A stretch of 64,000 nt of DNA from the NCBI GenBank assembly GCA_020072965.1, contig JAIQFY010000017.1, positions 17,604-81,603 of the forward strand, in the 5' to 3' direction. Below the pieces are notes generated by a model, which was not told where the DNA came from, ran no database searches, and was given only the letters and a program-made list of their open reading frames with translations. The DNA comes from Terriglobia bacterium (lineage in GTDB: Bacteria; Acidobacteriota; Terriglobia; JAIQFV01). Made by a program: the position numbers and the translations under genes. Positions 42,438 through 61,547 of the stretch are shown here, piece by piece (within the stretch, counting starts at the first letter, position 1; every line of letters starts with the position of its first letter).

Positions 42438-42565
42438 GAAAGCAGTTGTCAGTTCTCAGTTGTCAGTTGCCAGTGAAAAGCAGTTAGCTTTCTGCCCTTT
42501 ACTGGTAACAGTTTTCTGACAACTGGGAACTGGTCACTGGCAACTGCTTTCGACAACTGAGAACT
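42438..42565. repeat. CAGTTST heptamer inverted-repeat element
   Basis: gaaagcagttgtcagttctcagttgtcag...ctgacaactgggaactggtcactggcaactgctttc. Confidence 0.85.
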
Positions 42566-42583
42566 TTTTCCCGAGGAGAATAC

Positions 42584-43288
42584 ATGAGCGACAACAATGT
42601 GCTGATCAAGCTGGAAGGTGTCACGAAGGTCTTCTTCACCGACGAGGTGGAGACGCATGCGCTGTCCGGAATTCATCTCGATATCCACTCGGGCGAATAC
42701 GTCGCAATAGCCGGCCCGTCGGGATGTGGCAAGTCCACCTTGCTATCGATCCTGGGGTTGCTCGACACTCCCACGGAAGGCCACTACACCTTGAACGCCA
42801 CACCGGTCGAAGCGCTGAAGCCTTCGGAGCGGGCCCGCATCCGCAATCAGGAAGTGGGTTTCATCTTCCAGAGTTTCAATTTGATTGGCGACTTGACCGT
42901 GTACGAAAACGTGGAGTTGCCTCTGACCTATCGGGGGATGCGGGCAGTGGAGCGGCGCGAGCGGGCCAAGGAAGCCCTCGAGAAGGTGGGAATGGGCCAT
43001 CGCTCCAAGCACCTGCCGAGCCAGTTATCGGGCGGGCAGCAGCAGCGCGTGGCGGTGGCGCGAGCGCTGGTGGGCCGCCCCTCCATCCTGCTGGCGGACG
43101 AACCAACGGGAAACCTGGATTCTAAGAATGGCGAGGCCGTCATGGAGTTGCTGCGGCAGCTGCATCGGGACGGGGCGACCATCTGCATGGTGACACACGA
43201 TGCGCGTTTTGCCGCACACGCCGACCGCTCGGTACACCTGTTTGACGGCCGTGTGGTGGAAGAAAGCACGGAAGCCGAACCGGTTTGA
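42584..43288 (+). CDS. ABC ATP-binding protein (MacB/LolD-type)
   Basis: GPSGCGKS, LSGGQQQR, LLADEP, H-loop MVTHD. Confidence 0.95.
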   Translation: MSDNNVLIKLEGVTKVFFTDEVETHALSGIHLDIHSGEYVAIAGPSGCGKSTLLSILGLLDTPTEGHYTLNATPVEALKPSERARIRNQEVGFIFQSFNLIGDLTVYENVELPLTYRGMRAVERRERAKEALEKVGMGHRSKHLPSQLSGGQQQRVAVARALVGRPSILLADEPTGNLDSKNGEAVMELLRQLHRDGATICMVTHDARFAAHADRSVHLFDGRVVEESTEAEPV

Positions 43289-43554
43289 AATGCGGAATTC
43301 GGATTGCGGATTGCGGAATGACATTTGCCAAGGTCGAGTTAAAGGTTATGGCAGTTGTCGGAAATAAGTTCTCAGCTGTCAGTTCTCAGTTGCCAGTAAA
43401 AACCGTTGACCGGGAAGTAATGACTCTGACAAATGCAACAGCAAAAGGATGTTTGGAAGTGCGTTCCTCATTTCACGACATAAAGTCGACTCGCAACTTA
43501 CAAGGGTTTACTGGCAACTGAGAACTGGCCACTGAGAACTGAGGTCCGACAACT
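43287..43554. repeat. Composite element: GATTGCG arm plus CAGTTST inverted-repeat element
   Basis: Arms at 43353-43400 and 43507-43554 are largely complementary. Confidence 0.85.
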
Positions 43555-43570
43555 TCTCGAGGTAAGACTG

Positions 43571-46018
43571 ATGGATTCATTCCTCCACGACATCCGTTAC
43601 AGCCTGCGGCTGTTGTTCAAACACCCTGGCTTCATGGCGGTTGCGATTGCCACGCTGGCGCTGGGCATCGGAATCAACACCAGCATCTTCACCGTTTTCA
43701 ATGCCCTTGCGCTGCGACCGCTCCCAGCGAAGGACCCCGGCAGTGTGGTGAGAGTCTATGAGTCGTTCGAGGATGGAAGCCGTTACGGATCAGCCTCCTA
43801 CCCGGATTACGTGGATTTCAGAGACCAAAACAACGTTTTCTCGGGCCTGGTCGCCTACACTGGAGCGGCGCTGCGATTGGGCGAAAGCAGTGAACCCAAT
43901 GCCTCCAGCGAAACGTTCCAGGGAACGCTCGTTTCAGGAAACTTCTTTTCCGTGCTCGGAGTTGACGCTATTGTTGGACGGACTTTCATTCCTGAAGAAG
44001 ATAAGACACCCGGTTCGCATCCCGTGGCCGTTCTGAGTTATGGCTTATGGGTAAGGCGATTCGGTTCAGACCCCGGTGTAGTGGGAAAAACGCTGACCCT
44101 GAATTTCCATCCGTACACCGTGGTCGGGGTGGCGCCCAAATGGTTCACCGGCTTGGAACCGACGGCCACGGATCTCTGGGTACCCATGATGATGGAAGCG
44201 GAGGCGGTGCCCGGCCGCAACTTCCTCAATAATCGCAATTCCCACCGGCTGAAACTGGTGGGCCGGCTGAAGCCGGGAGTAACTCTAGAGCAGGCCGAGG
44301 CTCAAATTTCTACCCTGGCAGACCAACTCGATCAGACCTACAACCAGCCTGTTGCCAAAAAGAGGAAGGTTAGCGCAACCCTGGCCCCGGGCTCATTCCT
44401 TGACCCCAACGAGAATGGAAACGTTATTCCGGTCGCCTTCCTTATGATGGCTGGGGTCGGCCTCGTCCTCCTCATCGCCTGTGCCAATCTCGCCAATCTG
44501 TTGCTATCGCGGGCCGCCTCGCGGCAAAGAGAGATCGGAATCCGGCTTTCCTTGGGAGCCACCCGGGGCCGGTTGATCAGACAACTTCTGACCGAGAGCA
44601 CACTGCTTTCTCTGGGAGGGGGAATCACGGGACTCCTCCTTACTTTCTGGATTACGGACCTGCTCATCAGGTTCATTCATCCTCCCGGGGAGCTGCCGCT
44701 CGCAATCAATGTGAGTCCCGATGTTAATGTCTTCGTATATGCCCTGGTGATCTCGCTTATGGCGGGAGTTGCATTTGGCCTGCTCCCCTCCATGCAATCA
44801 ACGAAGCTGACTCTCACGTCGGCCTTGAAGGATGAGGGCACCCCCTTCGGTCAAGGCGTAAGCCGCTCTCGACTACGAAGTCTGTTGGTGGGGGGGCAGG
44901 TGGCGGTCTCATTGGTCCTGTTGATCGGCGCCGGATTGCTGGTCCGGGCACTTCATAATGCGCAAACCACTGACCCCGGATTTGCCATGAAGGATGTCCT
45001 CGTCCTGTCCCCTGATCTGCGATTGCATGGCTACACGCCGACCCGCGCCGCCGAATTTGACCGGGAACTTTTGGACAAGCTCCAATACTTGCCAGGAGTA
45101 AAGTCCGTGGGGATGGCGTGGGTCATCCCCCTGGGCTCATCAATGTCCGATACCAACGTGGAGATTGAAGGCCACGAGACTCCCCCTGGGAAAAAATCGC
45201 CTTTTGCCAGTCTCAATTTTGTTTCCGAAAAATATTTTGACGCCCTGAACATTCCGATAGTTCGCGGCCGTACCTTCACTGAGCAGGAGGTGGCGAATAA
45301 CGCGAAGGTCGCCCTTATCAATGAATCGTTTGCACGACGCTTTTGGCCGGGTGTCGATCCCATCGGAAAACGATTTAATTACGGGATTGAAATCGTCGGG
45401 GTCGTGAAAGACACCCGTAGCGTTCATCTCTGGTCGTCGAGTGAGCCTATCGTCTATCGGCCAGTTGAACCCGACTTCCAGCCCGACATGAAATTCTTCG
45501 TTCGAACTGACGGCGGCTCAAACTATCTCGCGACAACACTTCCGGGGATTGTCGGAAAGATCGACGGCAGCGTACAGACTAATGTCAAAACGCTGGAAGA
45601 TAACCTCCAGGCGTGGTTGTGGCCCTCCCGCATGGGAGCGCTGCTCTCGGCGGCTTTGGGAGTTCTGGCAATACTGCTGGCCTCGGTGGGCATTTACGGC
45701 GTGACCGCTTACGCGGTCAGCCAGAGGACTCATGAGATTGGCATTCGCATGGCGCTGGGTGCGGAGCGGCGCGATGTGCTTCACCTGGTCTTGCGGGATG
45801 GCATGAGGCCGGTCATCACGGGCATCGCGGCCGGTCTGGTGATTTCCATTGCGGCGACGAACTTGCTTGCAAAATTCCTTTACGGATTGAGCGCCGTTGA
45901 TGTGGTGACGTTTGCCATCGTGTCGGTGGTTCTGGCGGCAGTGGCCGCATTGGCGAATTACCTTCCCGCGCGACGTGCTGCAAGAGTCGATCCAATGGTG
46001 GCGCTACGATACGAATGA
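43571..46018 (+). CDS. ADOP-type ABC permease, array copy 3
   Basis: MDSFLHDIRYSLRLL.K.PGF, REIGIRLSLGA, RRAARVDPMVALRYE. Confidence 0.92.
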   Translation: MDSFLHDIRYSLRLLFKHPGFMAVAIATLALGIGINTSIFTVFNALALRPLPAKDPGSVVRVYESFEDGSRYGSASYPDYVDFRDQNNVFSGLVAYTGAALRLGESSEPNASSETFQGTLVSGNFFSVLGVDAIVGRTFIPEEDKTPGSHPVAVLSYGLWVRRFGSDPGVVGKTLTLNFHPYTVVGVAPKWFTGLEPTATDLWVPMMMEAEAVPGRNFLNNRNSHRLKLVGRLKPGVTLEQAEAQISTLADQLDQTYNQPVAKKRKVSATLAPGSFLDPNENGNVIPVAFLMMAGVGLVLLIACANLANLLLSRAASRQREIGIRLSLGATRGRLIRQLLTESTLLSLGGGITGLLLTFWITDLLIRFIHPPGELPLAINVSPDVNVFVYALVISLMAGVAFGLLPSMQSTKLTLTSALKDEGTPFGQGVSRSRLRSLLVGGQVAVSLVLLIGAGLLVRALHNAQTTDPGFAMKDVLVLSPDLRLHGYTPTRAAEFDRELLDKLQYLPGVKSVGMAWVIPLGSSMSDTNVEIEGHETPPGKKSPFASLNFVSEKYFDALNIPIVRGRTFTEQEVANNAKVALINESFARRFWPGVDPIGKRFNYGIEIVGVVKDTRSVHLWSSSEPIVYRPVEPDFQPDMKFFVRTDGGSNYLATTLPGIVGKIDGSVQTNVKTLEDNLQAWLWPSRMGALLSAALGVLAILLASVGIYGVTAYAVSQRTHEIGIRMALGAERRDVLHLVLRDGMRPVITGIAAGLVISIAATNLLAKFLYGLSAVDVVTFAIVSVVLAAVAALANYLPARRAARVDPMVALRYE

Positions 46019-46214
46019 ATTGCGGATTGCAGTTTTCCGATTGCGGAATGGAGAGCAGTTTCCCTTGGCTCAGCTTCCGCAATCCGAAATCCACAATCCG
46101 AAATTGGATTGGAACGTGGAGCGCCTGGCAGACGCGCCTTCCACTCTGAATCCCTATGCCAAAACCCGGAGACAGGCAGGATGCCTGCACTCCAAACCTA
46201 ACAAGGAGAATGTA

Positions 46215-46856
46215 ATGAAATCCAAGCTCATCATCCTCGGGGTGTCAATCCTGACACTTTTCCTTTCGCTCCCGCGTCTCATTCAGGCCCAGCCGACGCA
46301 GCCGACCCAGCCTACTATTGTCGCCTTTGGAAGCGACTCCCCGGAACGCGGGACCACACGCGTGGGATATTGGAATAGAGTGAAAAACATGGGCGCCGGC
46401 CAGTTTGCCATTAATTACGGCCGTCCCGTGTGGAATAAGGATTATGAGGATCCCGCGAAGTTCGATCCCATGACCAAAGGCAAGACGTGGCGAATGGGAA
46501 GCAACTTCTGGACGGTGCTTGACACGGACATGCCCCTCAAGATCTCCGGGAAGACCGTCCCGGCGGGGCTCTGGTATCTCGGGCTCCATCGATCCGAGGA
46601 CGGGAAGCAATGGAGCCTTGCCTTCATTGACCCGGTCAAGGCTCGGCGTGAACACGTGGACGCTTCGGAAATCGAACGGGCGCCCGCTGAATTTACCGTT
46701 CCAGTGACCATGGACCCTGCCGGCGATCTGAAGGATAAGCTAACCATCGACCTGGTTTTCAAGCGGCCCGATATTCAAAACGTCACTCTCAAGATTGCAT
46801 GGGGCACACTTCGGTTGAGCGCCCCGATCGTCGTGCCCATCACGACAGGGAGTTAA
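46215..46856 (+). CDS. DUF2911-like exported protein
   Basis: RBS aaggag, signal peptide MKSKLIILG, INYGRP, WRMGSN.WT.LDTD, I.GKTVPAG.WYL, IAWG. Confidence 0.75.
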   Translation: MKSKLIILGVSILTLFLSLPRLIQAQPTQPTQPTIVAFGSDSPERGTTRVGYWNRVKNMGAGQFAINYGRPVWNKDYEDPAKFDPMTKGKTWRMGSNFWTVLDTDMPLKISGKTVPAGLWYLGLHRSEDGKQWSLAFIDPVKARREHVDASEIERAPAEFTVPVTMDPAGDLKDKLTIDLVFKRPDIQNVTLKIAWGTLRLSAPIVVPITTGS

Positions 46857-46867
46857 GAAGTGGAAAA

Positions 46868-47113
46868 GTTGTCAGTTGTCGGTTCTCAGTTGTCAGTGAA
46901 GAGCGATCAGCCACCAACTACGGACAAATCTGGTCAACTCAGAAGGTGGAGGCTATTTTCTGATTTCAAACGTTTAAATAGGGTATCCGTTACTGCAAGA
47001 GTTCCGGGGCGACGTAGCTCAAAACTTGGCACACTACTGCGGGCCGGTCACTGAGTTTTAGATTTGATGGCTGACCGCTCTTCACTGACAACTGAGAACC
47101 GACAACTGATAAC
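46868..47113. repeat. CAGTTST element with 46-bp terminal inverted repeats (2 mismatches)
   Basis: 46868-46913 versus the reverse complement of 47068-47113. Confidence 0.9.
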
Positions 47114-47133
47114 TATTTAGACAGGAATGAAGA

Positions 47134-49686: not shown

Positions 49687-49687
49687 A

Positions 49688-49871
49688 TCAGTTGTCAGTT
49701 CTCAGTTGCCAGTAAAAAGCTGTCAGCGTTCAGCTATCAGCCGTAATCGGATGCACATGACCAGAATAAAAGAAATACTCGAGTTTTTTGATATGTTTCA
49801 CTCTAATCCTAGCTGAGGGCTGAATGCTGATCGCTAACGGCTGGATTCTGAAAACTGAGAACTGACAACTC
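49688..49871. repeat. CAGTTST element with conserved core, forward orientation
   Basis: Core aatcggat...ctcgagttttttgatatgtttcactctaatcctagctga is homologous to 60180-60377. Confidence 0.85.
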
Positions 49872-49883
49872 TTTTTTGAAACG

Positions 49884-52313
49884 ATGATGGACCATCTACT
49901 GCAAGATCTCCGGCACGGCCTGCGATTGCTCGCCAAATCGCCCGGGTTCACCGTGGTCGCCGTGCTGACACTCGCGCTGGGTATCGGCGCGAACACGGCC
50001 ATTTTCAGCCTTGTCAATGCAGTCCTCCTGAACCCCCTTGCATTCCCCCGGGAAAGTCAACTGGTGGTCCTCACCGGCCAGACCCACCAGGAGAAGCGGA
50101 CCGGAATCTCCTACCCGGAATTCGAGGATTGGCGGAGACAGAGCCGGTCCTTCTCGGCCCTTTCCACGTGGATGACACAGAGTGTGAATCTGACGGGCGT
50201 CGATGAGCCCCAGCGCGTGCGCGGCGGATTTGTCTCCGCCAATTTTTTTGATCTGCTTGGCATCAGGCCGGCGCAAGGTCGCGCTTTCCTCAAGGGAGAG
50301 GATCAGCCGGGGAGGGATCGAGTGGCGGTCGTGAATTACAGCCTGTGGCAAACGCGTTTCGGGGCCGATCCCGGGTTAGTCGGAAAACAACTCATTCTCA
50401 ACGGTGCGGTGTTCACGGTGATTGGCATCCTCCCGCAGACATTCGAGTTCCCACTGGACAAGGATCGGGATGAAATCTGGATGCCCGTATCCAGCTATCC
50501 CAATTTTTCTCGAGAGCGCAGTACCTACAACCTCGTGGGGATCGGCCGCCTAGGGCCGGACGCCACCCTCAGCCAGGCACAAGTGGAGATGAATACCATC
50601 TCGCAACGACTCGCCGAGGAGTACCCAGACACCGACGGGCAGCGCCATGTAGTGGTCGCCCTCCTGCACGAAGTGGCCGTCGAAGAGGTGCGGACTTCCC
50701 TCCTGGTTCTGTTCGCAGCCGTGGGGTTCGTCCTGCTGATCGCGTGTGCCAACGTGTCGAATCTGATGCTTGCCCGTGCGGCCGGGAGACGAAAAGAAAT
50801 GGCATTGCGTTCCGCTCTGGGGGCAAGCCGGGGGAGGTTGATCCTCCAGATGCTCACGGAGAGCGTCCTGTTGTGGCTGGTGGGAGGGGCACTCGGTCTT
50901 CTAGCTGGCAATTGGGGCCTGCACGCTATTCAGATGACTGCCCCCTTGGATTTTCCCCCGGGCATTGTTCCTCACCTGGACGGTCTGGTCTTCGGTTTTA
51001 CCTGGTTGGTGGCAGTCCTCACGGGGATCCTCTCAGGGCTTGTGCCGGCTTTTCAATTCTCCCGTCCGGACTTGAACCACACGCTCAAAGAAGGCGGGAG
51101 AGTCTCAGATGAAGGATCGAGCCGGAAATGGTCGCAGAAATTGCTCCTGGTATCCCAAGTGGCGCTTTCGTTAGTGCTTCTGGTTGGCGCTGGACTGATG
51201 TTGAAGACAGTGATCCGGCTCTCAAGGACCGATCCGGGGTTCCACCCGGAAAATCTTCTGACTCTGGAGTATCGCCTGCCTGAAACCAAGTATCCCAAGG
51301 CGGCGGAACAATGGAATTTCCACCGCGAGGTGGTGGAGCGCGTGAGCGCTCTGCGGGGCGTGCAATCGGCGGCCGTCTCCCTGGGAATTCCCTTTAGCGG
51401 GAACTTTGGCTCGAATCCGGTCGTATTGCTGGATCGACCGGAGCCTCCTCCTGGAGAGGAGCCAATCGCCGAAACTAATCTGGCCGACACACATTACTTT
51501 GAAACCATGGGAATTCCACTCATCAAAGGTCGCTGGTTCTTTGAGCATGACGAAGCAGGAGCCCCCCACGTCGCGGTTATCAACCAGAACATGGCAAGAC
51601 GTTATTGGCCAGGACGGGACCCTGTCGGTCAGCAAATCCAGCTGCGCGATGAACTCTCCCTCTTTAGTAAGGAACCAGCTACCATCATCGGCATAGTCGA
51701 TAACGTCAAACAACAGAACCTGGAAGACCCTGCGAGCGCCCAGATCTATTTTGCCTTCAAGCAGAACCCAAACATATTCGCCACTCTGACGGTCCGGACC
51801 CAAGCCGATCCCATGCTGTTTGCCAACACAGTTCGCCGGGCAGTCTGGTCAGTGGACAAGGACCAGCCCATGTGGAAAGTGCGGTCGCTCGAATCGATGC
51901 TCGACCATTCCCTGGGTGCGCGACGGTATCTGATGTTTTTGCTCAGTATCTACGCAGCCCTGGCACTGGGCCTGGCGACGCTGGGAATCTACGGAGTCCT
52001 TTCTTACGCGGTGAACCAGCGTTTCCAGGAAATCGGCGTGCGGATGGCGTTGGGCGCCCAAACCGGAGACGTCCTTCGCCTGGTGATCCGGGATGGGATG
52101 CAACTGGTTCTTGCCGGGTTGGGGATCGGACTCCTCGGCGCACTTAGCTTGACACGATTGATGGCGGGATTGTTGTTCGAGGTGACCCCCACCGACCTGT
52201 CAACAATCGCAGCCGTGTCAGCACTTCTGGCGGGAGTTGCCTTCCTGGGATGTTATTTGCCGGCGCGCCGGGCAACGCGCGTCGATCCGATGGCGGTGCT
52301 AAGGTGCGAATAG
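49884..52313 (+). CDS. ADOP-type ABC permease, array copy 5
   Basis: MDHLLQDLRHGLRLL.KSPGF, RRATRVDPMAVLRCE. Confidence 0.92.
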   Translation: MMDHLLQDLRHGLRLLAKSPGFTVVAVLTLALGIGANTAIFSLVNAVLLNPLAFPRESQLVVLTGQTHQEKRTGISYPEFEDWRRQSRSFSALSTWMTQSVNLTGVDEPQRVRGGFVSANFFDLLGIRPAQGRAFLKGEDQPGRDRVAVVNYSLWQTRFGADPGLVGKQLILNGAVFTVIGILPQTFEFPLDKDRDEIWMPVSSYPNFSRERSTYNLVGIGRLGPDATLSQAQVEMNTISQRLAEEYPDTDGQRHVVVALLHEVAVEEVRTSLLVLFAAVGFVLLIACANVSNLMLARAAGRRKEMALRSALGASRGRLILQMLTESVLLWLVGGALGLLAGNWGLHAIQMTAPLDFPPGIVPHLDGLVFGFTWLVAVLTGILSGLVPAFQFSRPDLNHTLKEGGRVSDEGSSRKWSQKLLLVSQVALSLVLLVGAGLMLKTVIRLSRTDPGFHPENLLTLEYRLPETKYPKAAEQWNFHREVVERVSALRGVQSAAVSLGIPFSGNFGSNPVVLLDRPEPPPGEEPIAETNLADTHYFETMGIPLIKGRWFFEHDEAGAPHVAVINQNMARRYWPGRDPVGQQIQLRDELSLFSKEPATIIGIVDNVKQQNLEDPASAQIYFAFKQNPNIFATLTVRTQADPMLFANTVRRAVWSVDKDQPMWKVRSLESMLDHSLGARRYLMFLLSIYAALALGLATLGIYGVLSYAVNQRFQEIGVRMALGAQTGDVLRLVIRDGMQLVLAGLGIGLLGALSLTRLMAGLLFEVTPTDLSTIAAVSALLAGVAFLGCYLPARRATRVDPMAVLRCE

Positions 52314-52485
52314 GTAATAGGTAGTAGGTGATAGAAAATAGGTAATAGGTAATAGGTTCTAGGTTATTGGGAATTGGAGATAGCTGAAGGCCTTGGGTAT
52401 CCCGGAAGACCTGTCTGGGCTGGAAATACAAATGCGGCATGCAAATGGGTTTTTCTAACTCCTATCACCTGACACCTGGCACCTC
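52311..52485. repeat. GGTRATA heptamer inverted-repeat element
   Basis: Left arm taggtaataggtagtaggtgatag begins in the stop codon. Right arm cctatcacctgacacctggcacct lies before the next RBS. Confidence 0.8.
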
Positions 52486-52501
52486 TTTGAAAAAAGGAAA
52501 A

Positions 52502-54121
52502 ATGAACATCTCGACGACAATGATTCCCAACCTCACCAAACCTAAAGCCTTGATTGCCGATGACCAGACCGATGTTCTGGAAGCGTTGCGGCTGTTATTA
52601 AAGGGAGAAGGGTTTCACACTGAAACTGTCACCTCTCCCGCGGCGGTCATGACGGCTCTTAGAGACCAGAATTTTGACATCCTTCTGATGGACCTCAATT
52701 ATGCCCGGGACACGACCTCCGGACAGGAGGGATTGAACCTCCTCTCTCAAATCCGCGAACTGGATGCCACCCTTCCGGTCGTGGTAATGACCGCCTGGGG
52801 AACCATCGAGTTGGCGGTTGAAGCCATGCATCAGGGGGTTCAGGATTTTGTCCAGAAGCCCTGGGAAAACGAGCGCTTGATGAGCATCCTCCGCACCCAG
52901 GTTGATCTCGGACGGTCACGGCGCAAGTTAGTTCACCTGAAGACTGCAACCAAGAGCCTAAGCGAAAAAATCCGGGAAGTGTCCGAGCTCAAACCGTTAA
53001 TGGAGATTGTCTCGGCCCACTTGCAAAGTGCTTTGGAGTGCGAATCCGTGGTGGTGTTCACACGGGCACCCCATGAACCCGCCTTCACAGTGGCCTCCTC
53101 GGTCGGCTTTCCCGAGGACGATGTCGGCCGCTTGAAATTTGAACTCAGTAGCCCCATCTTTGAACTCCTGGAAAATCTGGTCCATGTTGAAGGACGGGAC
53201 TTCCCTTCCCACGAGAAATCCAAGTTGGAAGAGATCAAGGCTGCCCTGCTTGTCCCGGTCCTCATGGAAGGGGCCCTGGTGGGTTTCCTTGCCGTGGGGT
53301 GTAAGAGAACGGGCCAGAAATATGATGAGCAGGACAGTAAATTTTTATCCACCATCGCAGGGCAGATCGCCGCCGCCGTCAATCATTTGCGCTGGCAGGA
53401 GCAGGAGAGGGAGTTCAAGGAAGCCCGGGAGATCCAGCAAGGTTTGTTGCCCAAGGAGATTCCACAGATCGCCGGATTTGAAATATCCGGGGCGTGGCAA
53501 CCCGCGCGCGCTGTGGGTGGGGATTATTTTGATGTTCTCAAACTTAGCGAGACGCAAATCGCGCTGTGCATCGCGGACGTGGTGGGCAAGGGCATGCCTG
53601 CGGCCCTACTGATGTCTAATGTCCAGGCCGCAGTCAAAGCCTTCGCGTCAGATTTGGTTTCACCCAAGGAATTGTGCGCCAAGGTGAATCGCGTGATCAG
53701 CGGCAACATTGCCCCCGAGAGGTTTATCACCTCCTTTTACTGCGTCCTTTATGCCCGCTCAAAGAAACTTGTTTATACCAACGCCGGACACAACGCCCCG
53801 ATACTGCTGCACCGGGACGGGACTCTTCTTCGCCTGACAAAAGGAGGCGCGGTGCTGGGCGTGTTTCGCGACGGCCACTACCAGGAGGGCGAGGTCGAGT
53901 TGACCCCCGGCGATCGCCTCCTGCTCTTCACGGATGGGGTGACCGAATTGACCAACCCGGACGGTGACGAATTCGGGGAGAACCGCCTCATTGAACTGTT
54001 GCGTGGAAACCATCATCTGGGTGCAAGTGAACTGCAGCAGAAGGTGATGAATGCCATCGTGGAATTCAGCGGGGGAGAATTTCAGGACGATGCCACCATG
54101 CTCGTGCTGGCGGTAGGATGA
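52502..54121 (+). CDS. Response regulator REC-GAF-PP2C (SpoIIE/RsbU-like) phosphatase
   Basis: REC: IADDQ, LMDLNYARDTTSGQEG, MTAW, QKP. Central GAF-like segment. PP2C: VGGDYFD, IADVVGKG, TDGVTE, QDDAT. Start 52502 after aaggaa. Confidence 0.88.
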   Translation: MNISTTMIPNLTKPKALIADDQTDVLEALRLLLKGEGFHTETVTSPAAVMTALRDQNFDILLMDLNYARDTTSGQEGLNLLSQIRELDATLPVVVMTAWGTIELAVEAMHQGVQDFVQKPWENERLMSILRTQVDLGRSRRKLVHLKTATKSLSEKIREVSELKPLMEIVSAHLQSALECESVVVFTRAPHEPAFTVASSVGFPEDDVGRLKFELSSPIFELLENLVHVEGRDFPSHEKSKLEEIKAALLVPVLMEGALVGFLAVGCKRTGQKYDEQDSKFLSTIAGQIAAAVNHLRWQEQEREFKEAREIQQGLLPKEIPQIAGFEISGAWQPARAVGGDYFDVLKLSETQIALCIADVVGKGMPAALLMSNVQAAVKAFASDLVSPKELCAKVNRVISGNIAPERFITSFYCVLYARSKKLVYTNAGHNAPILLHRDGTLLRLTKGGAVLGVFRDGHYQEGEVELTPGDRLLLFTDGVTELTNPDGDEFGENRLIELLRGNHHLGASELQQKVMNAIVEFSGGEFQDDATMLVLAVG

Positions 54122-54126
54122 AAAGA

Positions 54127-54316
54127 AGTTATCAGTGGTCAGTGGTCAGTGGTCAGCAACTGGCAGTAACCGATCAGCTATCGGCTGTTAGGCATGAATA
54201 GAACATATCAAAAGACTTAAGCACTTCGTTGATTCTGATCATCTCAATCCGATTCCATCTGATAGTCGAATGCTGACAGCTGCTTACTCGCAACCGACCA
54301 CTGGCCACTGACAACT
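54127..54316. repeat. CAGTGGT/CAGTTST element with the conserved core in reverse orientation
   Basis: The reverse complement of about 54195-54256 is ggaatcggattgagatgatcagaatcaacgaagtgcttaagtcttttgatatgttctattc, which aligns with the 60180 core. Confidence 0.8.
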
Positions 54317-54330
54317 TTTTGGAGACAATG

Positions 54331-56835
54331 ATGGAATCGTTATTCCAGGATCTTCGCTACGCCCTCCGGATGCTGTTCAAGAACCCCGGCTTCACTGCGG
54401 TGGCCGTATTGACCCTGTCGCTCGGGATCGGCGCCAATACGGCGATCTTTTCTCTCACCGATCAGGTTCTTTTCCGGCTTCTCCCGGTCGTGCGTCCGGG
54501 GGAACTCGTGATCCTGCGCTCGCCCGGGCCGAATCCGGGGCACACCTGGAGCGATAGCGATGATACGGCCTCCTTCTCTTACCCGTTATACAAGGACCTG
54601 CGAGAACGCAATACGGTGCTTGCCGGTGTTCTGGCCCGCTTCCCGACTTCGTTGAACGTGGCGGGAGATGGACAAACGGAACGTGCAAGCGGCGAGCTGG
54701 TGTCCGGAAATTACTTCGAATTGCTAGGAGTGCGCCCGGCTCTGGGCCGCGTCCTGACTCCGGCGGACGAGAGCGCGCCCGGGGCAAATCCGGTGGCAGT
54801 GTTGAGTTATGGTTACTGGACACGCCGGTTTGGCGGGGATCCCGGCATTCTGAACAAAGTCCTGAATGTCAATGGAACGCCGCTCACCGTGGTCGGTGTG
54901 TCTCGCCCCGGTTTTGCTGGAATTCAGATCGGTCAGTTGCCGGATATCTTTGTTCCCATCACGATGAAACCGATGATGACGCCCAATTGGGACGGGCTGA
55001 ATGATCTCAAGGATCATTGGGTCGCGATCCTCGGTCGACTGAGGCCGGGTATGACGCGACCTCAAGCGGAAGCGGGTTTGTTGCCGGTTTATCGATCCAT
55101 TCTTGAATCCGAGTTGCCCCTGATGGGCCTGTCTGCGACAACGAAAAGTCGGTTTCTCCAAAAGCAAATCCTACTGGGCGAGGGATCCCACGGCAGACCC
55201 GTTCTACAGAATGACGCTCAGCGGCCCTTGCTGGTCCTGATGGCGATGGTGGGACTGGTGCTGCTGATCGCTTGCGCCAACCTCGCAAACCTCCAGTTGG
55301 CGCACGGGCTGGCGAGGCAGCGCGAGGTCGCCGTGCGGGCCGCACTGGGCGCTGGACGCCTCCGCATGGTCCGTCAGCTGTTGACAGAGAGTGTGCTGCT
55401 GGCGCTTGCCGGAGGCGCCACCGGTCTGCTGGTTGCTTCGTGGATGCTCGAAACCTTCATTGGAGCGATTCCCCAGGGACTGGGAGCGGTGGGGCTTGAG
55501 GCCCGACTGGATCCTCGGGTAATAGGATTCACCCTGGGCCTTTCGGTTGGGACAGCTATCCTGTTCGGTTTAATCCCCGCCCTGCGGGCGACACGAATCG
55601 ATTTGCAAAGCACGCTCCAGGGACAAGGGGCCGCTGTCTCGAACAGCTTGTCCCACGTGCGCTTGCGGAAAGGATTGATCGTTTCACAGGTGGCGCTCAC
55701 GGCGGTGCTGCTCATCGTGGCCGGATTATTTGCCCGGAGTCTTGACAACTTGAAACGATTATCCCTGGGTGTGCGCATCGATCACGTGATCCAGTTTTCC
55801 ATCGCGCCCGAATTGAATCGCTATACCCCACCGCAGACCCTGTCTCTGTTTGACCGCATGAGAGCAGGCATCGGCGCTTTGCCCGGCGTGCGTTCGGTCA
55901 GCACTGCGGAGGTTCCCGTGTTCGATAACAGCGATATGGGGTCCAATATCACGGTGCAAGGATATGCGCCCCATGAAGAGGAAGACATGCATGTGTTCAA
56001 GAACTGGGTGGGACCCGATTATTTCTCGACCATGGGCACCCCCTTGATTGCGGGCCGTGAGTTCAATGAAGGCGACAGGGCGGAAGCCCCGAAGGTTGCT
56101 ATCATAAATGAGACGATGGCTCGTCGTTTTTTTGCGGGCCGCAACCCCATCGGCGGCCGATTCGCTTTCGGGGCCGGCCACAACACACTTCCGGACATCG
56201 AAATTGTCGGTCTGGTGAAAGACAGCAAACACACCAGCCTGCGGAGCGAAATCCATCCGTTCGTGTGCCTTCCTTATGAGCAGGACACAAAGCTGGGAGG
56301 GATCACGTTTTATGTGCGGACGGCGATGGAGCCGGCTGCAATGCTCGAAACACTGCGCCACACCGTCGAACGCTTCGACCCGAATCTGCCGCTGTATGAT
56401 CTCAAGACCCTTCAAAATAAGGTGGACGAGTCGCTCTTCAGCGACCGGCTGTTGACGTTTCTTTCTTTGTGCTTTGGGGTACTGGCTGCTCTACTGGCGG
56501 CCGTGGGGCTGTACGGGGTGATGACCTACACGGTAACACGCCGTACGCGCGAGATCGGCATGCGCGTCGCACTCGGCGCCACCCGCGAAAATGTGGCCTG
56601 GTTGATTTTGCGGGAAGTCGCACGCATGACGGGCGTGGGACTCACGATCGGCCTGGCAGCAGCGTTCGCCCTCGGCCGGTTGATTGAGTCGCAGTTGTTT
56701 GGCATCCGGGCCAGCGACCCTTTGGTCTTCGTCCTGGCGGCAGTGCTGCTTGCGGCGGTGGCTCTTTTGGCCGGCTATCTGCCGGCACATCGGGCAACGC
56801 GGGTGGATCCCATGGTGGCATTGAGATGCGAGTAA
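54331..56835 (+). CDS. ADOP-type ABC permease, array copy 6
   Basis: MESLFQDLRYALRML.KNPGF, PAHRATRVDPMVALRCE. Confidence 0.92.
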   Translation: MESLFQDLRYALRMLFKNPGFTAVAVLTLSLGIGANTAIFSLTDQVLFRLLPVVRPGELVILRSPGPNPGHTWSDSDDTASFSYPLYKDLRERNTVLAGVLARFPTSLNVAGDGQTERASGELVSGNYFELLGVRPALGRVLTPADESAPGANPVAVLSYGYWTRRFGGDPGILNKVLNVNGTPLTVVGVSRPGFAGIQIGQLPDIFVPITMKPMMTPNWDGLNDLKDHWVAILGRLRPGMTRPQAEAGLLPVYRSILESELPLMGLSATTKSRFLQKQILLGEGSHGRPVLQNDAQRPLLVLMAMVGLVLLIACANLANLQLAHGLARQREVAVRAALGAGRLRMVRQLLTESVLLALAGGATGLLVASWMLETFIGAIPQGLGAVGLEARLDPRVIGFTLGLSVGTAILFGLIPALRATRIDLQSTLQGQGAAVSNSLSHVRLRKGLIVSQVALTAVLLIVAGLFARSLDNLKRLSLGVRIDHVIQFSIAPELNRYTPPQTLSLFDRMRAGIGALPGVRSVSTAEVPVFDNSDMGSNITVQGYAPHEEEDMHVFKNWVGPDYFSTMGTPLIAGREFNEGDRAEAPKVAIINETMARRFFAGRNPIGGRFAFGAGHNTLPDIEIVGLVKDSKHTSLRSEIHPFVCLPYEQDTKLGGITFYVRTAMEPAAMLETLRHTVERFDPNLPLYDLKTLQNKVDESLFSDRLLTFLSLCFGVLAALLAAVGLYGVMTYTVTRRTREIGMRVALGATRENVAWLILREVARMTGVGLTIGLAAAFALGRLIESQLFGIRASDPLVFVLAAVLLAAVALLAGYLPAHRATRVDPMVALRCE

Positions 56836-56837
56836 AC

Positions 56838-57049
56838 CAGTTGTCAGTTGCCAGTTCTCAGTTCTCAGTTGAAAGTCGCAAAATGCTAGTGTTCAGCTAT
56901 CAGCGATCAGCCTTCAGCTTTGGAAAGGGCGCATGATGAGTCATGACTACGCTCTGACTCTTGTTTGATTACGGAGACGGCCAAGAGAATCTGACTGTGT
57001 GTCGGTACTTCACTGAGAACTGGCAACTGACAACTGCTTCTGACAACTC
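56838..57049. repeat. CAGTTST element, second core subfamily
   Basis: tagtgttcagctatcagcg...ctgactctt...gattac...caagagaatc is shared with 59560-59750. Confidence 0.8.
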
Positions 57050-57062
57050 TTCGGAGGTTACG

Positions 57063-59498
57063 ATGGAAACCTTGTTCCAGGATCTTCGCTACGGCTTCCG
57101 GATGCTGCTGAAGAATCCCGGGTTCACCGCTGTGGGCATTTTGACCCTGGCGCTCGGAATTGGCGCCAACACGGCAATCTTCAGTGTCGCGGATGCATTC
57201 CTGCTGAAGCCGCTTTCGATCCCCAACGAGAATCGCATGGTGGTCGCCCTCGAAGTGGGGCCCAATCAGAGGGGCGATGACACCTCAAGTGTCTCTCCTG
57301 CCAACTTTGAAGACTGGAAGAGTCAAGCCAAGACCTACGACGCCATGGCTGCTTATGCTTGGGCGAATGTCAATCTGACGGGTCAGGGAGAGCCCGAGAA
57401 GGTCCAAGGATTCGAGGTCTCCCCTAATTTCTTCGGGGTCGTGGGAATGCAGCCAGCCCTGGGTCGAGTTTTCTTACCCGAGGAGGAAAATCCCGGGCAT
57501 GAACAGGTGGCGATTCTCAGTCATGGGCTCTGGCAGCGCCGGTACGCTTCTGACCCCAGCATCGTTGGAAAGAACGTGACGATTGACGGAAGGACTTACG
57601 CGGTCATCGGAGTCATGCCTGCAGGGTTCAACTTCCCCACCACCGTGGAGTTGTGGATGCCGCTCGCACTCGACTCGAAGGCCCGGAGCGTTCGAAATGC
57701 ACACTACCTGTTTGCGCTGGGCCTGCTCAAACCCGGAATGTCTACCTCCTCCGCACGAGCCGAGTTGAAGACGATTGCGGCGCAGTTGGCACAGGCTTAC
57801 CCGACCACAAACAAGGGTTGGTCAGTCCGTGTCATGTCCATGCGGGATTTTGTGACCGAGGACTTAACGCGGCAGTATACCCTGATGTCAGTCGTCGCCG
57901 TCGCCTTTGTGCTCCTGATCGCTTGCGCCAACGTCGCCAATCTTCAGTTCGCCCGGGCCACAAGCCGCCAGAGAGAGATGGCCGTGCGGGTGTCCCTCGG
58001 CGCAGGTCGATGGCGGATCATGCGGCAACTTTTGACAGAAAGCGTCGCGGTGTCTCTGCTGGGTGCGGCACTCAGCTTGCTCCTGGCCCAGTGGGGCATC
58101 GAACTTATCCTGGCACACATGCCTCCCGAGACCGCCAAGTTTATCGCCGCGTGGAATCACATCAGCCTTGATTACCGGGCCTTTTTGTACACTTTGACCG
58201 TGGCCCTGCTTACCGGCATCCTGTCCGGCCTTCTCCCAGCTTTTCAGAGCTCAAAGCCGGATCTCAACGAAGCCTTGAAGGAAGGCGGACGCAGTGCAAC
58301 AGCAGGCCAATCGAAACATCGTCTGCGAAGTTTCCTGGTCATGGCCGAAGTGGCGTTGGCCCTGATTCTCCTGGTGGGATCGGGGTTGATGGTGAAGAGC
58401 TTTAAAGCCCTGCTGAACATGAATCAGGGACTCGATCCGAATGGTGCCCTCACCCTGCGCATCGATCTTCCTCCGGCCAAATACAAGACCCCGCCGCAAA
58501 GGGCGGCCTTCTATGAACAGGTGCTGCAAAATCTGAAGATGATCCCCGGAGTCGAGGCTGCCGCCACCGCCACCAATATTCCCTATGGGAATTACGGGAG
58601 CAACGCGCTTATCAGCGTGGAAGGGAGGGTGTCAGTTAATGCCTCAGACCTTCAGTTGGCCACGAACCAGGTCATTGGTGCAGACTATTTTCGATTGATG
58701 CACATCCCGCTTCAAGCAGGCCGTGAGTTCACCGGCCAGGATGGGACAGATTCTCCTCCCGTCGCGCTCGTGAGCGAGTTGCTGGCACGCAGGTACTGGC
58801 CCAATCAAAACCCGATCGGGAAACGAGTGAAGTTGGGGCTCGAGAACAGCATTCACCCCTGGATGACCGTGGTGGGTGTGGTCGGCGACGTCAAGTATGA
58901 GTGGAGTGAGCGGGATCCGAGACCCACGCTCTATTATCCTTTTCAACAAGCTCCTGTACTGAACTCGTACGTGGCGATCCGCTCCCAGGGGGATCCCAGG
59001 CAATTCATTTCGGCGGTGCGGGCTGCGATTGCGCGGGTCGATTCCCAACAACCCCTCTCCGACATTAAACCGTTGGACAAGGTGATTTCAGATTCCACGG
59101 TCGGCATTGCCTATGTCGCCGTCATCATGAGCGTCCTTGCAGTCATCGCGTTAATTCTTTCAACCGTGGGGGTCTTTGGGGTGGTGTCTTATCAGGTGAC
59201 GGAGCGAATCCATGAAATTGGAATCCGCATGGCCCTCGGCGCCAACCCGCGCGATGTATTGGGGATGGTTGTTGCCCGGGGGGCCTGGTTGACATTCACG
59301 GGTTTGGGAATTGGTCTCATTTTCTCGATCGGACTCGCACGGCTGCTCGCCAGCCTGATTTTTGGAATCGAGGCGATGGATTGGCTCACTTTCGGAAGTC
59401 TTTCTTTGACGCTCGCGCTGGTGGCCATGCTGGCCAGCTATCTGCCTGCACGACGCGCCACCCGGGTGGACCCGGTGGTCGCGCTGCGACATGAGTGA
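57063..59498 (+). CDS. ADOP-type ABC permease, array copy 7
   Basis: RBS ggagg, [36 protein letters not shown]. Confidence 0.92.
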   Translation: METLFQDLRYGFRMLLKNPGFTAVGILTLALGIGANTAIFSVADAFLLKPLSIPNENRMVVALEVGPNQRGDDTSSVSPANFEDWKSQAKTYDAMAAYAWANVNLTGQGEPEKVQGFEVSPNFFGVVGMQPALGRVFLPEEENPGHEQVAILSHGLWQRRYASDPSIVGKNVTIDGRTYAVIGVMPAGFNFPTTVELWMPLALDSKARSVRNAHYLFALGLLKPGMSTSSARAELKTIAAQLAQAYPTTNKGWSVRVMSMRDFVTEDLTRQYTLMSVVAVAFVLLIACANVANLQFARATSRQREMAVRVSLGAGRWRIMRQLLTESVAVSLLGAALSLLLAQWGIELILAHMPPETAKFIAAWNHISLDYRAFLYTLTVALLTGILSGLLPAFQSSKPDLNEALKEGGRSATAGQSKHRLRSFLVMAEVALALILLVGSGLMVKSFKALLNMNQGLDPNGALTLRIDLPPAKYKTPPQRAAFYEQVLQNLKMIPGVEAAATATNIPYGNYGSNALISVEGRVSVNASDLQLATNQVIGADYFRLMHIPLQAGREFTGQDGTDSPPVALVSELLARRYWPNQNPIGKRVKLGLENSIHPWMTVVGVVGDVKYEWSERDPRPTLYYPFQQAPVLNSYVAIRSQGDPRQFISAVRAAIARVDSQQPLSDIKPLDKVISDSTVGIAYVAVIMSVLAVIALILSTVGVFGVVSYQVTERIHEIGIRMALGANPRDVLGMVVARGAWLTFTGLGIGLIFSIGLARLLASLIFGIEAMDWLTFGSLSLTLALVAMLASYLPARRATRVDPVVALRHE

Positions 59499-59500
59499 AG

Positions 59501-59750
59501 AGTTCTCAGTTGTCAGTTCTCAGTTGTCAGTTGACTGAAAGCAGTTTCCAGTTGCCATTTCTCAGTTGACAGCCGGGAGGTGTTAGTGTTGAGCTATCAG
59601 CGTTCAGCGATGAGAACCACGCAAGGTGAGTTAGAGCTTGCTTCTGACTCTTCCGAATCGATTACCACCGTCGTCAAGGGAATCAGCCAGGAGTGGGGGC
59701 TCTTCACTGGCAACTGAGAACTGACAACTGAGAACTGATTTCCGGCAACT
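59501..59750. repeat. CAGTTST element, second core subfamily
   Basis: Left arm gttctcagttgtcagttctcagttgtcagttg, right arm actggcaactgagaactgacaactgagaactg. Confidence 0.85.
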
Positions 59751-59774
59751 GTCTTTCAGATCGGAGATTCCTCC

Positions 59775-60179
59775 ATGCGAACCTCTCGCGAGATCGGATA
59801 TGCATTGCTGCGGGTGACCCTGGGTGTCTTGTTTGCGACTTATGGAATCGGAAAATTCCGGATGGGGATCGGCAACTTCGCCGGCGTGATAGAAAAAGAG
59901 TTCACCGGCAAACTCCCGATGGTCCTGGTCTCCCCGTTTGGTTACATTCTCCCTTTCGCTGAACTGCTGGTCGGTGTCCTGCTGACCCTCGGGCTCTTCA
60001 CTTCCCTCGCACTCATCCTGGCCGGGCTGCTGATGATTGCGCTAACGTTTGGGATGGCGCTCACGGGGCAGGCTCCCGTTGTCGCGCAAAACCTCACCTA
60101 CGTCCTCGTCATTTTTATTCTTTTCTGGGCCTTGGAAAGTAATGGATATTCCCTGGATCGACTGCGGCAGGGTAGGTAA
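59775..60179 (+). CDS. DoxX family membrane protein
   Basis: LLRVTLGVLF..YG.GKF, LPFAELLVG.LL.LGLFT. Four TM segments. Confidence 0.8.
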   Translation: MRTSREIGYALLRVTLGVLFATYGIGKFRMGIGNFAGVIEKEFTGKLPMVLVSPFGYILPFAELLVGVLLTLGLFTSLALILAGLLMIALTFGMALTGQAPVVAQNLTYVLVIFILFWALESNGYSLDRLRQGR

Positions 60180-60377
60180 CAGTTGTCAGTTGTCAGTTCT
60201 CAGTTGTCAGTGAGGAGCTGTCAGCATTCAGCTATTAGCCATCAGCTGGAATCGGATTCAAATGACTGGAAACAACGAAGTGCTCGAGTCTCTTGATATG
60301 TCTCACTCTAATCATAGCTGACTGCTGATAGCAGATAGCTGACGGCTAGTTGCTGACAACTGAGAACTGACAACTGT
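60180..60377. repeat. CAGTTST element with conserved core, forward orientation
   Basis: cagttgtcagttgtcagttctcagttgtcagt...ctcgagtctcttgatatgtctcactctaatcatagctga...ctgacaactgagaactgacaactg. Confidence 0.85.
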
Positions 60378-61340: not shown

Positions 61341-61547
61341 GACGCGATCACCTTCTCTTGGGATGAGGCGAAGGGGAGGGAGAACCTGCGCAAGCACAAG
61401 GTCCCATTCGAAGGGGCGGGTTGGTCGTGCATGAACTTCCGAACCGATTGTAAAGCATGATCGCGGGTATTTAACCATTCCTCTGGCAACTGACCACTGA
61501 GAACTGACAACTTTTATGAGCGGAAACAACACGGGAGTTTTTTATGA
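61338..61547 (+). pseudogene. brnT: Disrupted BrnT (DUF497) toxin
   Basis: MDAITFSWDEAKGRENLRKHKVPFE, then a stop at 61458-61460 and a heptamer arm at 61484-61512. An in-frame C-terminal remnant ERKQHGSFL* overlaps the brnA ATG (ATGA). Confidence 0.7.

Follow-up and report, generated by a model that had tools for sequence, protein, structure and literature searches.

The gaps between the genes of an acidobacterial permease array are filled by long hairpins whose arms are built of tandem 7-nt repeats. We analyzed these elements in a 64,000-nt stretch of DNA (the window) from an uncultured Terriglobia bacterium (assembly GCA_020072965.1, contig JAIQFY010000017.1, positions 17,604 to 81,603 of the forward strand), in which a gene array with all genes in one direction extends from 34842 to 61070. 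The elements are palindromic modules without coding content that are dispersed, nested, and invertible, and their arms are heptamer arrays. They are an acidobacterial modular variant of the known, unexplained short tandemly repeated repetitive (STRR)/TAACTGA repeats, not a new kind of element. Recognition of heptamer repeats of these kinds goes back decades in cyanobacteria and to 2015 in sulfur bacteria, and we know of no established mechanism for them. On balance we regard the elements as probably non-autonomous, STRR-type palindromic repeats that colonise intercistronic spacers in modular form, with their effects upon RNA being a tolerated side effect and not a polar signal. What is new here is the abundance of this repeat class in Acidobacteriota, Planctomycetota, and viral contigs, in the form of nested, flipping palindromic modules with dispersed cores. 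The locus is unusually informative for the long-standing heptamer-repeat question, which it makes testable as a choice between selfish DNA under translational constraints and a device for operon processing or coupling.

Heptamer arrays were detected with Tandem Repeats Finder and a period-7 scan of the window, and all period-7 arrays were found to sit in intergenic gaps. All 13 gaps of the gene array hold a heptamer hairpin or array, and the list of open reading frames (ORFs) for the window contains none of note in the gaps. The 13 coordinates at which a first-pass annotation of this DNA had placed such elements all proved to carry tandem heptamers, beginning 0–12 nt past a stop codon. Seven are of the CAGTTNT type (42438, 43353, 46868, 49688, 56838, 59501, and 60180), four of the GATTGCG type (37255, 39767, 40787, and 46018), one of the CAGTGGT type (54127), and one of the TAGGTAA type (52311). 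A window scan for (CAGTTSY)3CAGT with at most two mismatches gave 25 matches compared to 0.00 expected, all of them in 42443–61513. The observation is real and statistically overwhelming. Each unit of the 5' arm consists of TCAG and three variable bases, and the 3' arm is its complement; the arms measure 25–61 nt and the elements 110–260 bp. The modules are nested in one another, with CAGGTGT arms outermost, followed by CAGTTNT and CAGC arms and then by the core.

Folding of the gaps gave one long stem-loop in each, as the first-pass annotation had proposed. Two examples were tested against dinucleotide shuffles: the element at 46868 (E46860) has a folding free energy (dG) of −125.5 and a z-score of −12.5, and that at 60180 (E60176) has a dG of −104.4 and a z-score of −10.4. 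A 46-bp inverted repeat with two mismatches had been described at 46868–47113, and the segments 46868–46913 and 47068–47113 indeed differ from perfect complementarity at exactly two positions; an inverted-repeat search at the same element extended the arms to 54 nt with 93% complementarity. Placement of the arms close to the stop codon and to the next ribosome-binding site (RBS) was likewise confirmed. For a set of 42 gap hairpins (10 gaps in each of 4 genomes, and 2 others), the median distance was 5.5 nt from stop codon to stem and 20 nt from stem to start codon, and the stem-loop took up 86% of the gap.

The first-pass annotation had also ascribed to the elements a strict polarity relative to the genes. 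This did not hold up, and what remains of it is a fixed, strand-independent arrangement of the arms in the order 5'-TCAG-type...CTGA-type-3'. Reverse-complementing a hairpin that has X as its left arm and rc(X) as its right arm yields X on the left once more; arm order is therefore uninformative on gene strand, and the core or loop is the only asymmetric part of an element. The elements at 49688, 60180, and 54127 constitute family Y and have a core of approximately 70 nt (AATCGGATT...CTCGAGTCTTTTGATATGTTTCACTCTAATCATAGCTGAC), outer arms of CAGTTNT or CAGTGGT units, and inner arms of CAGCNNT units. All three lie between plus-strand genes. The element at 54127 (E54122) aligns over its full length to those at 49688 (E49685) and 60180 (E60176) only as the reverse complement, with 74% column identity. 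In addition, the element at 60179–60382 is inverted in the gap between the DoxX and ABC genes of a related genome (locus L133, GCA_020073085.1), with 85.9% identity over 205 nt, and the genes flanking it there are collinear at 88%. Polarity relative to the genes is refuted for the core, the sole part able to show it, because family Y cores lie both ways and flip in place in L133. Cores recur as dispersed copies: family Y has 3 in the window and 10 over four genomes, and a second core (core A) has a single copy in the window, three in L126, and another three in L128.

The genomes nearest to the locus are Terriglobia/Acidobacteriia metagenome-assembled genomes. Starting from homologues of the HlyD and SpoIIE proteins, we located syntenic stretches in three relatives (loci L123/L133, L126/L135, and L128/L134), whose genes are 80–89% identical to those of the window at the nucleotide level. 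A long hairpin is present in 10 of 10 orthologous gaps in all four genomes, and the heptamer type, the nesting, and the cores differ among them. The gap between the HlyD and ABC genes has CAGTTNT arms in the window and L123, and CAGCNAT arms around the core A of approximately 170 nt in L126 and L128, which retain three unpaired ANAACTG units ahead of the RBS and have lost the left CAGTT arm. Core A occupies the DUF2911-850 gap in the window, L126, and L128, and L123 has there (CAGGTGT)n/(ACACCTG)n arms with another core. In the 850-808 gap, family Y stands alone in the window and is nested in outer CAGGTGT arms in L126; L123 again has CAGGTGT arms and another core. In the RR-834 gap (RR, response regulator), family Y is present in reversed form in the window and L133; L134 has a plain 109-nt CAGGTGT hairpin there and L135 has eight CAGGTGT units with core A, and these differences lack clean boundaries.

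The heptamer type is exchanged on both arms jointly, and 7-nt units are gained or lost one arm at a time; in one hairpin the left arm of L128 has two more units than that of L126, with no matching change in the right arm. The hairpins E46860 and E54122 and the one in the 815-DUF2911 gap align straight through at gene-level identity, so that persistence and turnover of the hairpins coexist. The four syntenic genomes provide a natural time series, in which one can follow switches of heptamer type, nesting, inversion, unit gain on a single arm, and the disappearance of one gene and one hairpin. The last of these involves L128 (16084–18762), which has one extra 824-aa permease and one extra (TAGGTAA)n hairpin compared to L126 in genomes that are 96–98% identical; the breakpoints lie at the end of the right arm of a hairpin and just ahead of the Shine-Dalgarno sequence (SD) of the next gene. 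The number of permeases upstream of HlyD varies among relatives. Among further loci, L131 has heptamer hairpins of 146–160 nt between permease paralogues, L130 has a 281-nt GATTTCG-type hairpin with its arm order reversed compared to the window, and L132, a more distant relative, contains an HlyD-ABC-permease operon (HlyD 68% identical) with 9-nt gaps and no hairpin. Hairpins are therefore dispensable for this operon type.

We examined conservation of structure in family Y by aligning its 10 copies. The consensus hairpin has 53 pairs; 90.2% of the cells are paired, compared to 23–44% when the partners were slid. Compensatory changes between the arms, which the first-pass annotation had put forward as a check, were found: both sides changed in 11 of the 53 pairs, and none of 500 shuffles attained the covariation score of 0.197. 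In most of the pairs that changed on both sides, the two arms have switched heptamer type. The alignment shows that complementarity of the arms is maintained, and such covariation could arise from selection at the RNA level or from arm-to-arm conversion of the DNA. In 28 of the 42 gaps the sense strand gives a more stable fold than the antisense strand (mean −5 kcal/mol, Wilcoxon p=0.0009, the 42 gaps being non-independent), and G-U pairs number 322 on the sense and 272 on the antisense strand. In 7 of 10 copies of family Y, however, the strand that folds more stably goes with the orientation of the element itself and not with the direction in which the genes are transcribed. We therefore dropped the sense-strand bias in stability and G-U pairing as proof of RNA selection, given the non-independence of the gaps and its tracking of family Y orientation; a transcription-linked C-to-T bias would also give such a pattern.

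A consensus scan of the gaps found no sigma-70-like promoters above chance, which is compatible with co-transcription of the genes. Intrinsic terminators numbered 25 compared to 20.1 expected in a consensus scan, and all were outside the gaps. Runs of T4–T6 follow several of the long stems (for example at 49873, 54315, and 42567), and partial termination is therefore possible. Rfam gave no match at the gathering threshold over the whole window, and none at E<=1 for 42000–61600.

To place these elements in a wider context, we scanned for exact (CAGTTNN)n patterns in one genome per species, which yielded at least 120 loci. Among the matches listed, approximately 50 are from Acidobacteriota; the others include Planctomycetota, Cyanobacteria (Nostocales and Microcoleus), Bacteroidota, Chromatiaceae (Thiocystis and Chromatium), Chloroflexota, Omnitrophota, and Poribacteria. 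A further 60 array stretches (L136–L195) come from IMG/VR viral contigs, several of them with a GC content of 61–70%. One of these, L154, carries a (CAGTTGC)16 hairpin and a (NCAACTG)14 run that abuts an SD and ATG. Phages may be the vehicle of spread across phyla, the contigs being viral by their IMG/VR listing.

In a survey of the 180 genome and viral loci, a partner was defined as a complementary array within 600 nt. Paired arrays have the order 5'-TCAG-type...CTGA-type-3' at 58 array ends compared to 1 in the reverse order among the listed genome loci, and at 81 compared to 15 in the viral loci. All apparent reverse cases span 447–557 nt and consist of a CTGA-type array before a small gene and a TCAG-type array behind it; every survey candidate for a reverse-order hairpin was rejected as a pair of arrays flanking a small gene. 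The small gene bracketed in this way in L089 is presumably that for ribosomal protein L14. About half of the surveyed arrays are solitary and form no hairpin. Solitary arrays adjoining start codons are of the CTGA type on the sense strand in 31 cases compared to 5, and those adjoining stop codons show no bias (14 compared to 17). The arrays of the window's minus-strand operon at 10191–10248 and 12047–12126 read AC-rich on the sense strand and follow the same rule. A GT-rich TCAG-type array thus follows stop codons and an AC-rich CTGA-type array precedes start codons, a rule that is independent of strand and holds widely.

These features can be accommodated by a model in which the elements spread and replace each other through recombination or template switching between hairpins that have heptamer microhomology. 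Such exchange would explain why target-site duplications are lacking, why differences take the form of a replaced loop and one arm and not of a clean insertion, why elements occur in both orientations and invert in place, and why the CAGTT type is confined to 42–61.5 kb with other types elsewhere in the window. Classical transposition would fit these points less well. The gaps would have been filled by insertion into short spacers like those of L132, tolerated only from the stop codon to the SD, and the fixed GT-rich...AC-rich arrangement would be held by selection on the leader of the downstream gene, next to its start codon. The CTGA-type arm is G-poor and AC-rich, has no ATG, GTG, or TTG, and mostly contains TGA in all three frames; the TCAG-type arm contains TTG or GTG, with an SD-like AGG in the CAGGTGT and TAGGTGA types. 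On a polycistronic mRNA the element would form a 30–60-bp stem that joins the upstream stop codon to the downstream RBS. RNase III cleaves long double-stranded stems, and 30–60 near-perfect base pairs would be a substrate if transcribed. Processing of the RNA hairpin is plausible by this analysis, and the likeliest effect of the stem would be RNase III cleavage and/or protection of 3' ends, as a side effect that is tolerated or mildly useful.

Several observations weigh against this model of tolerated colonisation. The mechanism of spread was not directly observed, and no empty site with clean boundaries was found. The presence of a hairpin in every gap of every close relative also fits selection for the hairpin, and the excess of stable sense-strand folds (28 of 42 gaps) could mean selection at the RNA level. 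Several orthologous hairpins diverge like the genes (80–89%), so that turnover is not uniformly fast. With respect to the arrangement rule, gene calls in the 180 surveyed loci were made by a crude longest-ORF rule, the GATTTCG-type hairpin of L130 has the opposite arrangement, and the argument from stop codons fails for the TAGGTAA type, which has stops in its 5' arm. An explanation of the arrangement purely by stop codons is accordingly only partly tenable.

Alternatively, the hairpins could be adaptive RNA elements, with RNase III cutting the stems so that a transcript of approximately 26 kb is resolved into per-gene messages whose ends are protected by half-stems. We consider this unlikely. 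In its favour, the hairpin persists in 10 of 10 orthologous gaps of four genomes despite turnover of its sequence, the arms show compensatory changes, the sense fold is the more stable (28 of 42 gaps; G-U pairs 322 compared to 272), promoters in the gaps do not exceed chance, the stem length suits RNase III with Correia elements as a precedent (PMC10969869), and flips of the core leave the palindromic stem unaltered and so provide no argument against such a role. However, the homologous operon of L132 manages with 9-nt gaps, compensatory change can also be obtained by arm-to-arm conversion of the DNA, the sense bias tracks element orientation within family Y, and the many solitary arrays (about half) form no hairpin. 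A different role has been proposed for arrays in Beggiatoaceae, as translation-initiation or regulator-binding elements (PMC4679880). If this applied here, the functional part would be the (NAACUGA)n array before the start codon, with the 5' arm masking it or coupling it to the upstream gene. The 31 to 5 preference of solitary start-adjoining arrays for the sense CTGA type is consistent with such a role, as are the three unpaired ANAACTG units kept ahead of the RBS in L126 and L128 without a left CAGTT arm and the (NCAACTG)14 run that abuts the SD and ATG of the viral locus. From the ribosome footprint, a terminating ribosome would open the initial 12 nt or so of a stem that begins 5.5 nt past the stop codon. 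The SD and start codon nevertheless lie outside the stem (median 20 nt), which leaves little to unmask, and the unrelated heptamers GATTGCG, TAGGTAA, and CAGGTGT are found at equivalent positions. We know of no binding protein for NAACUGA arrays, and consider a role of this kind improbable. We hold a similarly low opinion of the odds for a bracketing of genes at the RNA level that operates across phyla, in which (UCAGNNN)n past a stop codon pairs with (NNNCUGA)n before the next start. Pairing would bring the next ribosome-binding site to no more than one helix width from the terminating ribosome and could allow re-initiation across a 150–280-nt gap, a prokaryotic counterpart of ribosome shunting; alternatively, RNase III cleavage would leave each cistron with complementary 5' and 3' ends that are protected by pairing. 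If true, the breadth of the arrangement rule, which holds in Acidobacteriota, Planctomycetota, Cyanobacteria, Chromatiaceae, and phage contigs, would point to a common trans-acting factor or to repeated horizontal spread.

The elements might instead be mobile in a conventional sense. As classical MITEs (miniature inverted-repeat transposable elements) they would be deletion derivatives of insertion sequences, with a transposase binding the heptamer arrays in the terminal inverted repeats. Their small size (110–260 bp), non-coding nature, long terminal inverted repeats, dispersed related cores in both orientations, nested arrangements, and presence in many phyla and in viral contigs are in keeping with such an origin. 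A target-site duplication, however, is not found: reading of the sequences flanking the three family Y copies revealed no common direct repeat. Unit number and heptamer type of the arms vary among copies, and orthologous differences resemble replacement of the loop and one arm (L134 compared to L135, RR-834 gap), not clean insertion. The first-pass annotation had envisaged an autonomous parent with a transposase or a TIGR02436-type gene, and none was found in the window. No transposase, integrase, or REP-associated tyrosine transposase (RAYT; REP, repetitive extragenic palindromic) is among the proteins of the 64-kb window by Pfam and further protein checks, and a motif search of the six-frame translation of the window for a TIGR02436 four-helix-bundle gene gave only a spurious match. 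An array-bounded transposon was considered in L008, where the arms are 1.25 kb apart, and was rejected; this pair, the sole one of more than 1 kb that was inspected, encloses an ordinary ABC ATPase gene. A four-helix-bundle ORF stands beside an array in only 1 of 120 listed genome loci (L116, 6236–6802), and such a gene was rejected as a general parent. The end of that ORF, which resembles the intervening-sequence (IVS) proteins of 23S rRNA (...QLRRAAVSVPSNIAEG...ARGSLVEIETQ), is 40 nt short of a pair of CTGA-type arrays. In the JGI metagenome collection an exact-pattern scan gave no match to the family Y core and missed the known JGI-derived copies as well; because these were missed, the lineage is probably outside the collection that was scanned. 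Taken together, an origin as classical MITEs appears quite unlikely, if a little less so than the two roles in translation discussed above. 

The first-pass annotation had further suggested that the elements may be recombination handles for cassette exchange. In such a role the hairpins would delimit cassettes and mediate an integron-like gain, loss, and exchange of permease paralogues. One case speaks for this, the extra permease and hairpin of L128 compared to L126, with breakpoints at the hairpin edge and before the next SD; the variable permease number upstream of HlyD, a 93-nt repeat that covers two gene ends and the starts of their hairpins, and the genes bracketed by complementary arrays are also in agreement with it. 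Against it, no integrase was found in the window, the array genes are syntenic, conserved core genes at 80–89% identity, and the single clean case could also be due to unequal crossing-over between paralogues. Integron attC sites have ends of the form 5'-RYYYAAC ... GTTRRRY-3' and a nearby IntI integrase. The ends here are 5'-CAGTTGT ... ACAACTG-3', opposite in order (with a 5' GTT and a 3' AAC), and the window contains no integrase domain, so that an identity with attC was rejected. We consider a function as recombination handles highly improbable.

Among known systems, the colonising palindromic repeats described here are closest to two sets of heptamer repeats. STRR units are CCCCAGT (STRR1), TTGGTCA (STRR2), and CAACAGT (STRR3). 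The units seen here (CAGTTGT, CAGTTCT, CAGTGGT, CAGCNNT, CAGGTGT, GATTGCG, and TAGGTAA) are likewise 7-nt tandem units in non-coding DNA, and have only the CAGT core of STRR1 and STRR3 in common with them, differing from STRR1–3 in unit sequence and in not being from a cyanobacterial host. The link to STRR that had been drawn in the first-pass annotation is apt on account of this core and of a precedent in the cyanobacterial hupS-hupL intergenic region, where an STRR hairpin has been proposed to serve transcript stability or translational coupling (PMC2670836). There as here, tandem 7-bp units fold between two co-transcribed genes; the present elements differ in phylum, in their non-identical units, in the occupation of all 13 gaps, and in their nested modular structure, dispersed cores, and in-place inversion. 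TAACTGA heptamer direct repeats occur upstream of start codons in Beggiatoaceae, Cyanobacteria, Bacteroidetes, and Thiocystis, with stops in all three frames and a proposed role in translational regulation; 169 direct sets and one indirect repeat were described, with no predicted structure (MacGregor 2015, PMC4679880). The NAACTGA direct repeats examined here have the same unit except for the first base (CAACTGA and GAACTGA), and are similar in their forward orientation close to the downstream SD and start codon, in TGA in three frames, in reverse-orientation runs behind stops, and in their patchy spread over many phyla. Unlike those repeats, they have paired complementary arms, hairpins of 100–260 nt, and dispersed cores, are found in Acidobacteriota, and extend to hosts absent from the earlier study (Planctomycetota and viral contigs).

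Two other classes offer partial likenesses. Correia elements of Neisseria are MITEs that are co-transcribed and cleaved by RNase III (PMC10969869, PMC3184786). Like them, the present elements are small, non-coding, and intergenic, bear terminal inverted repeats, are predicted to fold as stable RNA hairpins, and exist as dispersed copies in both orientations. The arms here are, however, variable tandem arrays and not a fixed inverted repeat of 20–30 bp, and neither a target-site duplication nor a partner insertion sequence was found. REP sequences and their doublets (REPINs) are extragenic palindromic elements (Bertels and Rainey 2011, PMC3116915; Di Nocera 2013, PMC3733652), to which the long hairpins made of palindromic doublets, their non-random intergenic placement, and their long persistence are comparable. 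Unlike REP/REPIN elements, those of the window have no GTAG or CGTC head, no REP unit of 20–40 nt, and no RAYT in the window, and their arms are 7-nt tandem repeats.

The genes between which the elements lie encode, by Pfam, duplicated MacB_PCD+FtsX permeases (approximately 800 aa), an HlyD-type adaptor, two ABC ATPases, a methyltransferase, a response-regulator/GAF/SpoIIE phosphatase, and a MauE/DoxX protein, to which gene calling on the ENA metagenome contig ERZ27248001:k141_1232600, containing the window, added a DUF2911 protein. Three ORFs called by the longest-ORF rule, from 52439, 54319, and 56961, extend back into the right arms of hairpins. These starts are probably wrong and the true ones near 52502, 54331, and 57063, because the orthologues are 539, 834, and 811 aa in length. 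The open-frame 5' arms and alternative start codons of the elements can thus mislead ORF callers, as in these three cases, and the heptamer repeats are likely to break short-read assemblies. An assembly artefact was rejected as the source of the hairpins, since assemblies made independently (ENA, NCBI, JGI, and Logan) contain the same ones. In a second sample, one contig (L002) is 100% identical to 32584–45795 of the window and then diverges within the 3' end of the 815-aa permease; its divergent part, 13213–14260, corresponds to the window from 45796 onward. This divergence reflects recombination among paralogues at the strain level or else a chimera made in assembly.

Heptamer elements of the permease array and its downstream flank (window coordinates; strand is that of the core or array where assigned)
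Element	Coordinates	Strand	Details
GATTGCG hairpin, gap between 804-aa and 792-aa permease genes	37255..37380		arms ~37260-37285 and ~37348-37373
GATTGCG array right behind the 792-aa permease stop codon	39767..39800		within 93-nt repeat in common with 37196-37287
Short GATTGCG hairpin, methyltransferase-HlyD gap	40780..40833		inverted repeats and fold
CAGTTNT hairpin, HlyD-ABC gap	42438..42566		arms 42438-42473 and 42516-42551; dG -67.4; stop-to-stem 0 nt
Solitary GATTGCG-type array immediately past the ABC ATPase stop codon	43289..43321		period-7 repeat
CAGTTNT hairpin, ABC-815 gap	43353..43554		arms 43353-43400 and 43507-43554; core orthologous to L123, 76% identity
GATTGCG hairpin, 815-DUF2911 gap	46001..46122		inverted repeat; orthologous in L123, L126, L128
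Core A hairpin, CAGTTGT outer arms and CAGC-type inner arm	46864..47117		~170-nt core A at 46905-47076; z -12.5
Family Y element, core forward; CAGTTNT outer and CAGCNNT inner arms, asymmetric core of ~70 nt	49688..49872	+	
Weaker hairpin, (TAGGTAA)n with CCTATCACCTGACACCTGGCACC, 808-RR gap	52311..52490		dG -51.3
Family Y element, CAGTGGT arms, core reverse-complemented compared to 49688 and 60180	54127..54318	-	L133 orthologue likewise reversed
CAGTTNT hairpin, 834-811 gap	56835..57050		arms 56835-56862 and 57012-57039; core partly related to that at 59499
CAGTTNT hairpin, 811-DoxX gap	59499..59752		arms 59501-59572 and 59706-59751; dG -118.1
Family Y element, core forward, DoxX-ABC gap	60180..60377	+	0 nt past stop codon; z -10.4; wholly inverted in L133
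Solitary CTGA-type array GGCAACTGACCACTGAGAACTGACAACT, without left partner	61475..61513	+	30 nt upstream of a 70-aa ORF

Some of these elements have additional features. The hairpin at 37255 contains a 26-nt inverted repeat of 85% complementarity and folds over 114 of 133 nt, with its array 3 nt past the stop codon. The repeat of 93 nt (37196–37287 compared to 39708–39799, 94.6% identical) spans the final 60 nt or so of two neighbouring permease paralogues and the initial 30 nt or so of their downstream hairpins, which suggests that a gene end and its hairpin were duplicated or converted together. The short hairpin at 40780 is bracketed by two identical, perfectly self-complementary 26-nt palindromes (CGTAGTAACGACTTAAGTCGTTACTA, at 40717–40742 and 40856–40881), which belong to a different repeat class nested around the heptamer hairpin. 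Past the right arm of the hairpin at 42438 there are two unpaired NAACTGA units, followed by T5 and the SD. The solitary CTGA-type array at the downstream end lies between a 40-aa ORF at 61338–61460 (MDAITFSWDEAKGRENLRKHKVPFEG...), which breaks off, and an intact 70-aa ORF at 61544–61756. The former is putatively like the N-terminus of a BrnT-type toxin and the latter like a BrnA-type antitoxin.

Repeats are also found in the window outside the permease array. Other heptamer types (ATAGGTG, CAGGTGT/CGGGTGT, and GAAGTCR) are present at 10191–10248, 12047–12126, 14742–14827, and 63843–63900, and most of these show no clear partner arm. An SD-like AGGTG is part of both ATAGGTG and CAGGTGT, and their complements resemble the anti-SD CACCT. 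A REP-like hairpin that starts with GGTGCCGCAGGCAT and has the stem GCAGGCAT...ATGCCTGC occurs in three copies (8044, 61084, and 61177), compared to 0.01 expected by chance. The 256-nt gap between a sugar-type ABC ATPase and its permease (17520–17775) is one long hairpin without heptamers, with a dG of −90 kcal/mol and near-perfect outer arms of approximately 22 nt (GAGGAAGCCAGGAATACAGGAG / CTCCTGTATTCCTGGCTTCCT); gap-filling hairpins are therefore not confined to the heptamer elements. In the gap downstream of a minus-strand 824-aa permease, at approximately 8389–8649, a tandem repeat of 20 nt (CGCAAAGGACGCAGAGAAGG x2) precedes two direct copies of a unit of approximately 70 nt (…GCGTCCTTTGCGCCTCCCTGGCGGACTCTGTGGTTAGTTCG…).

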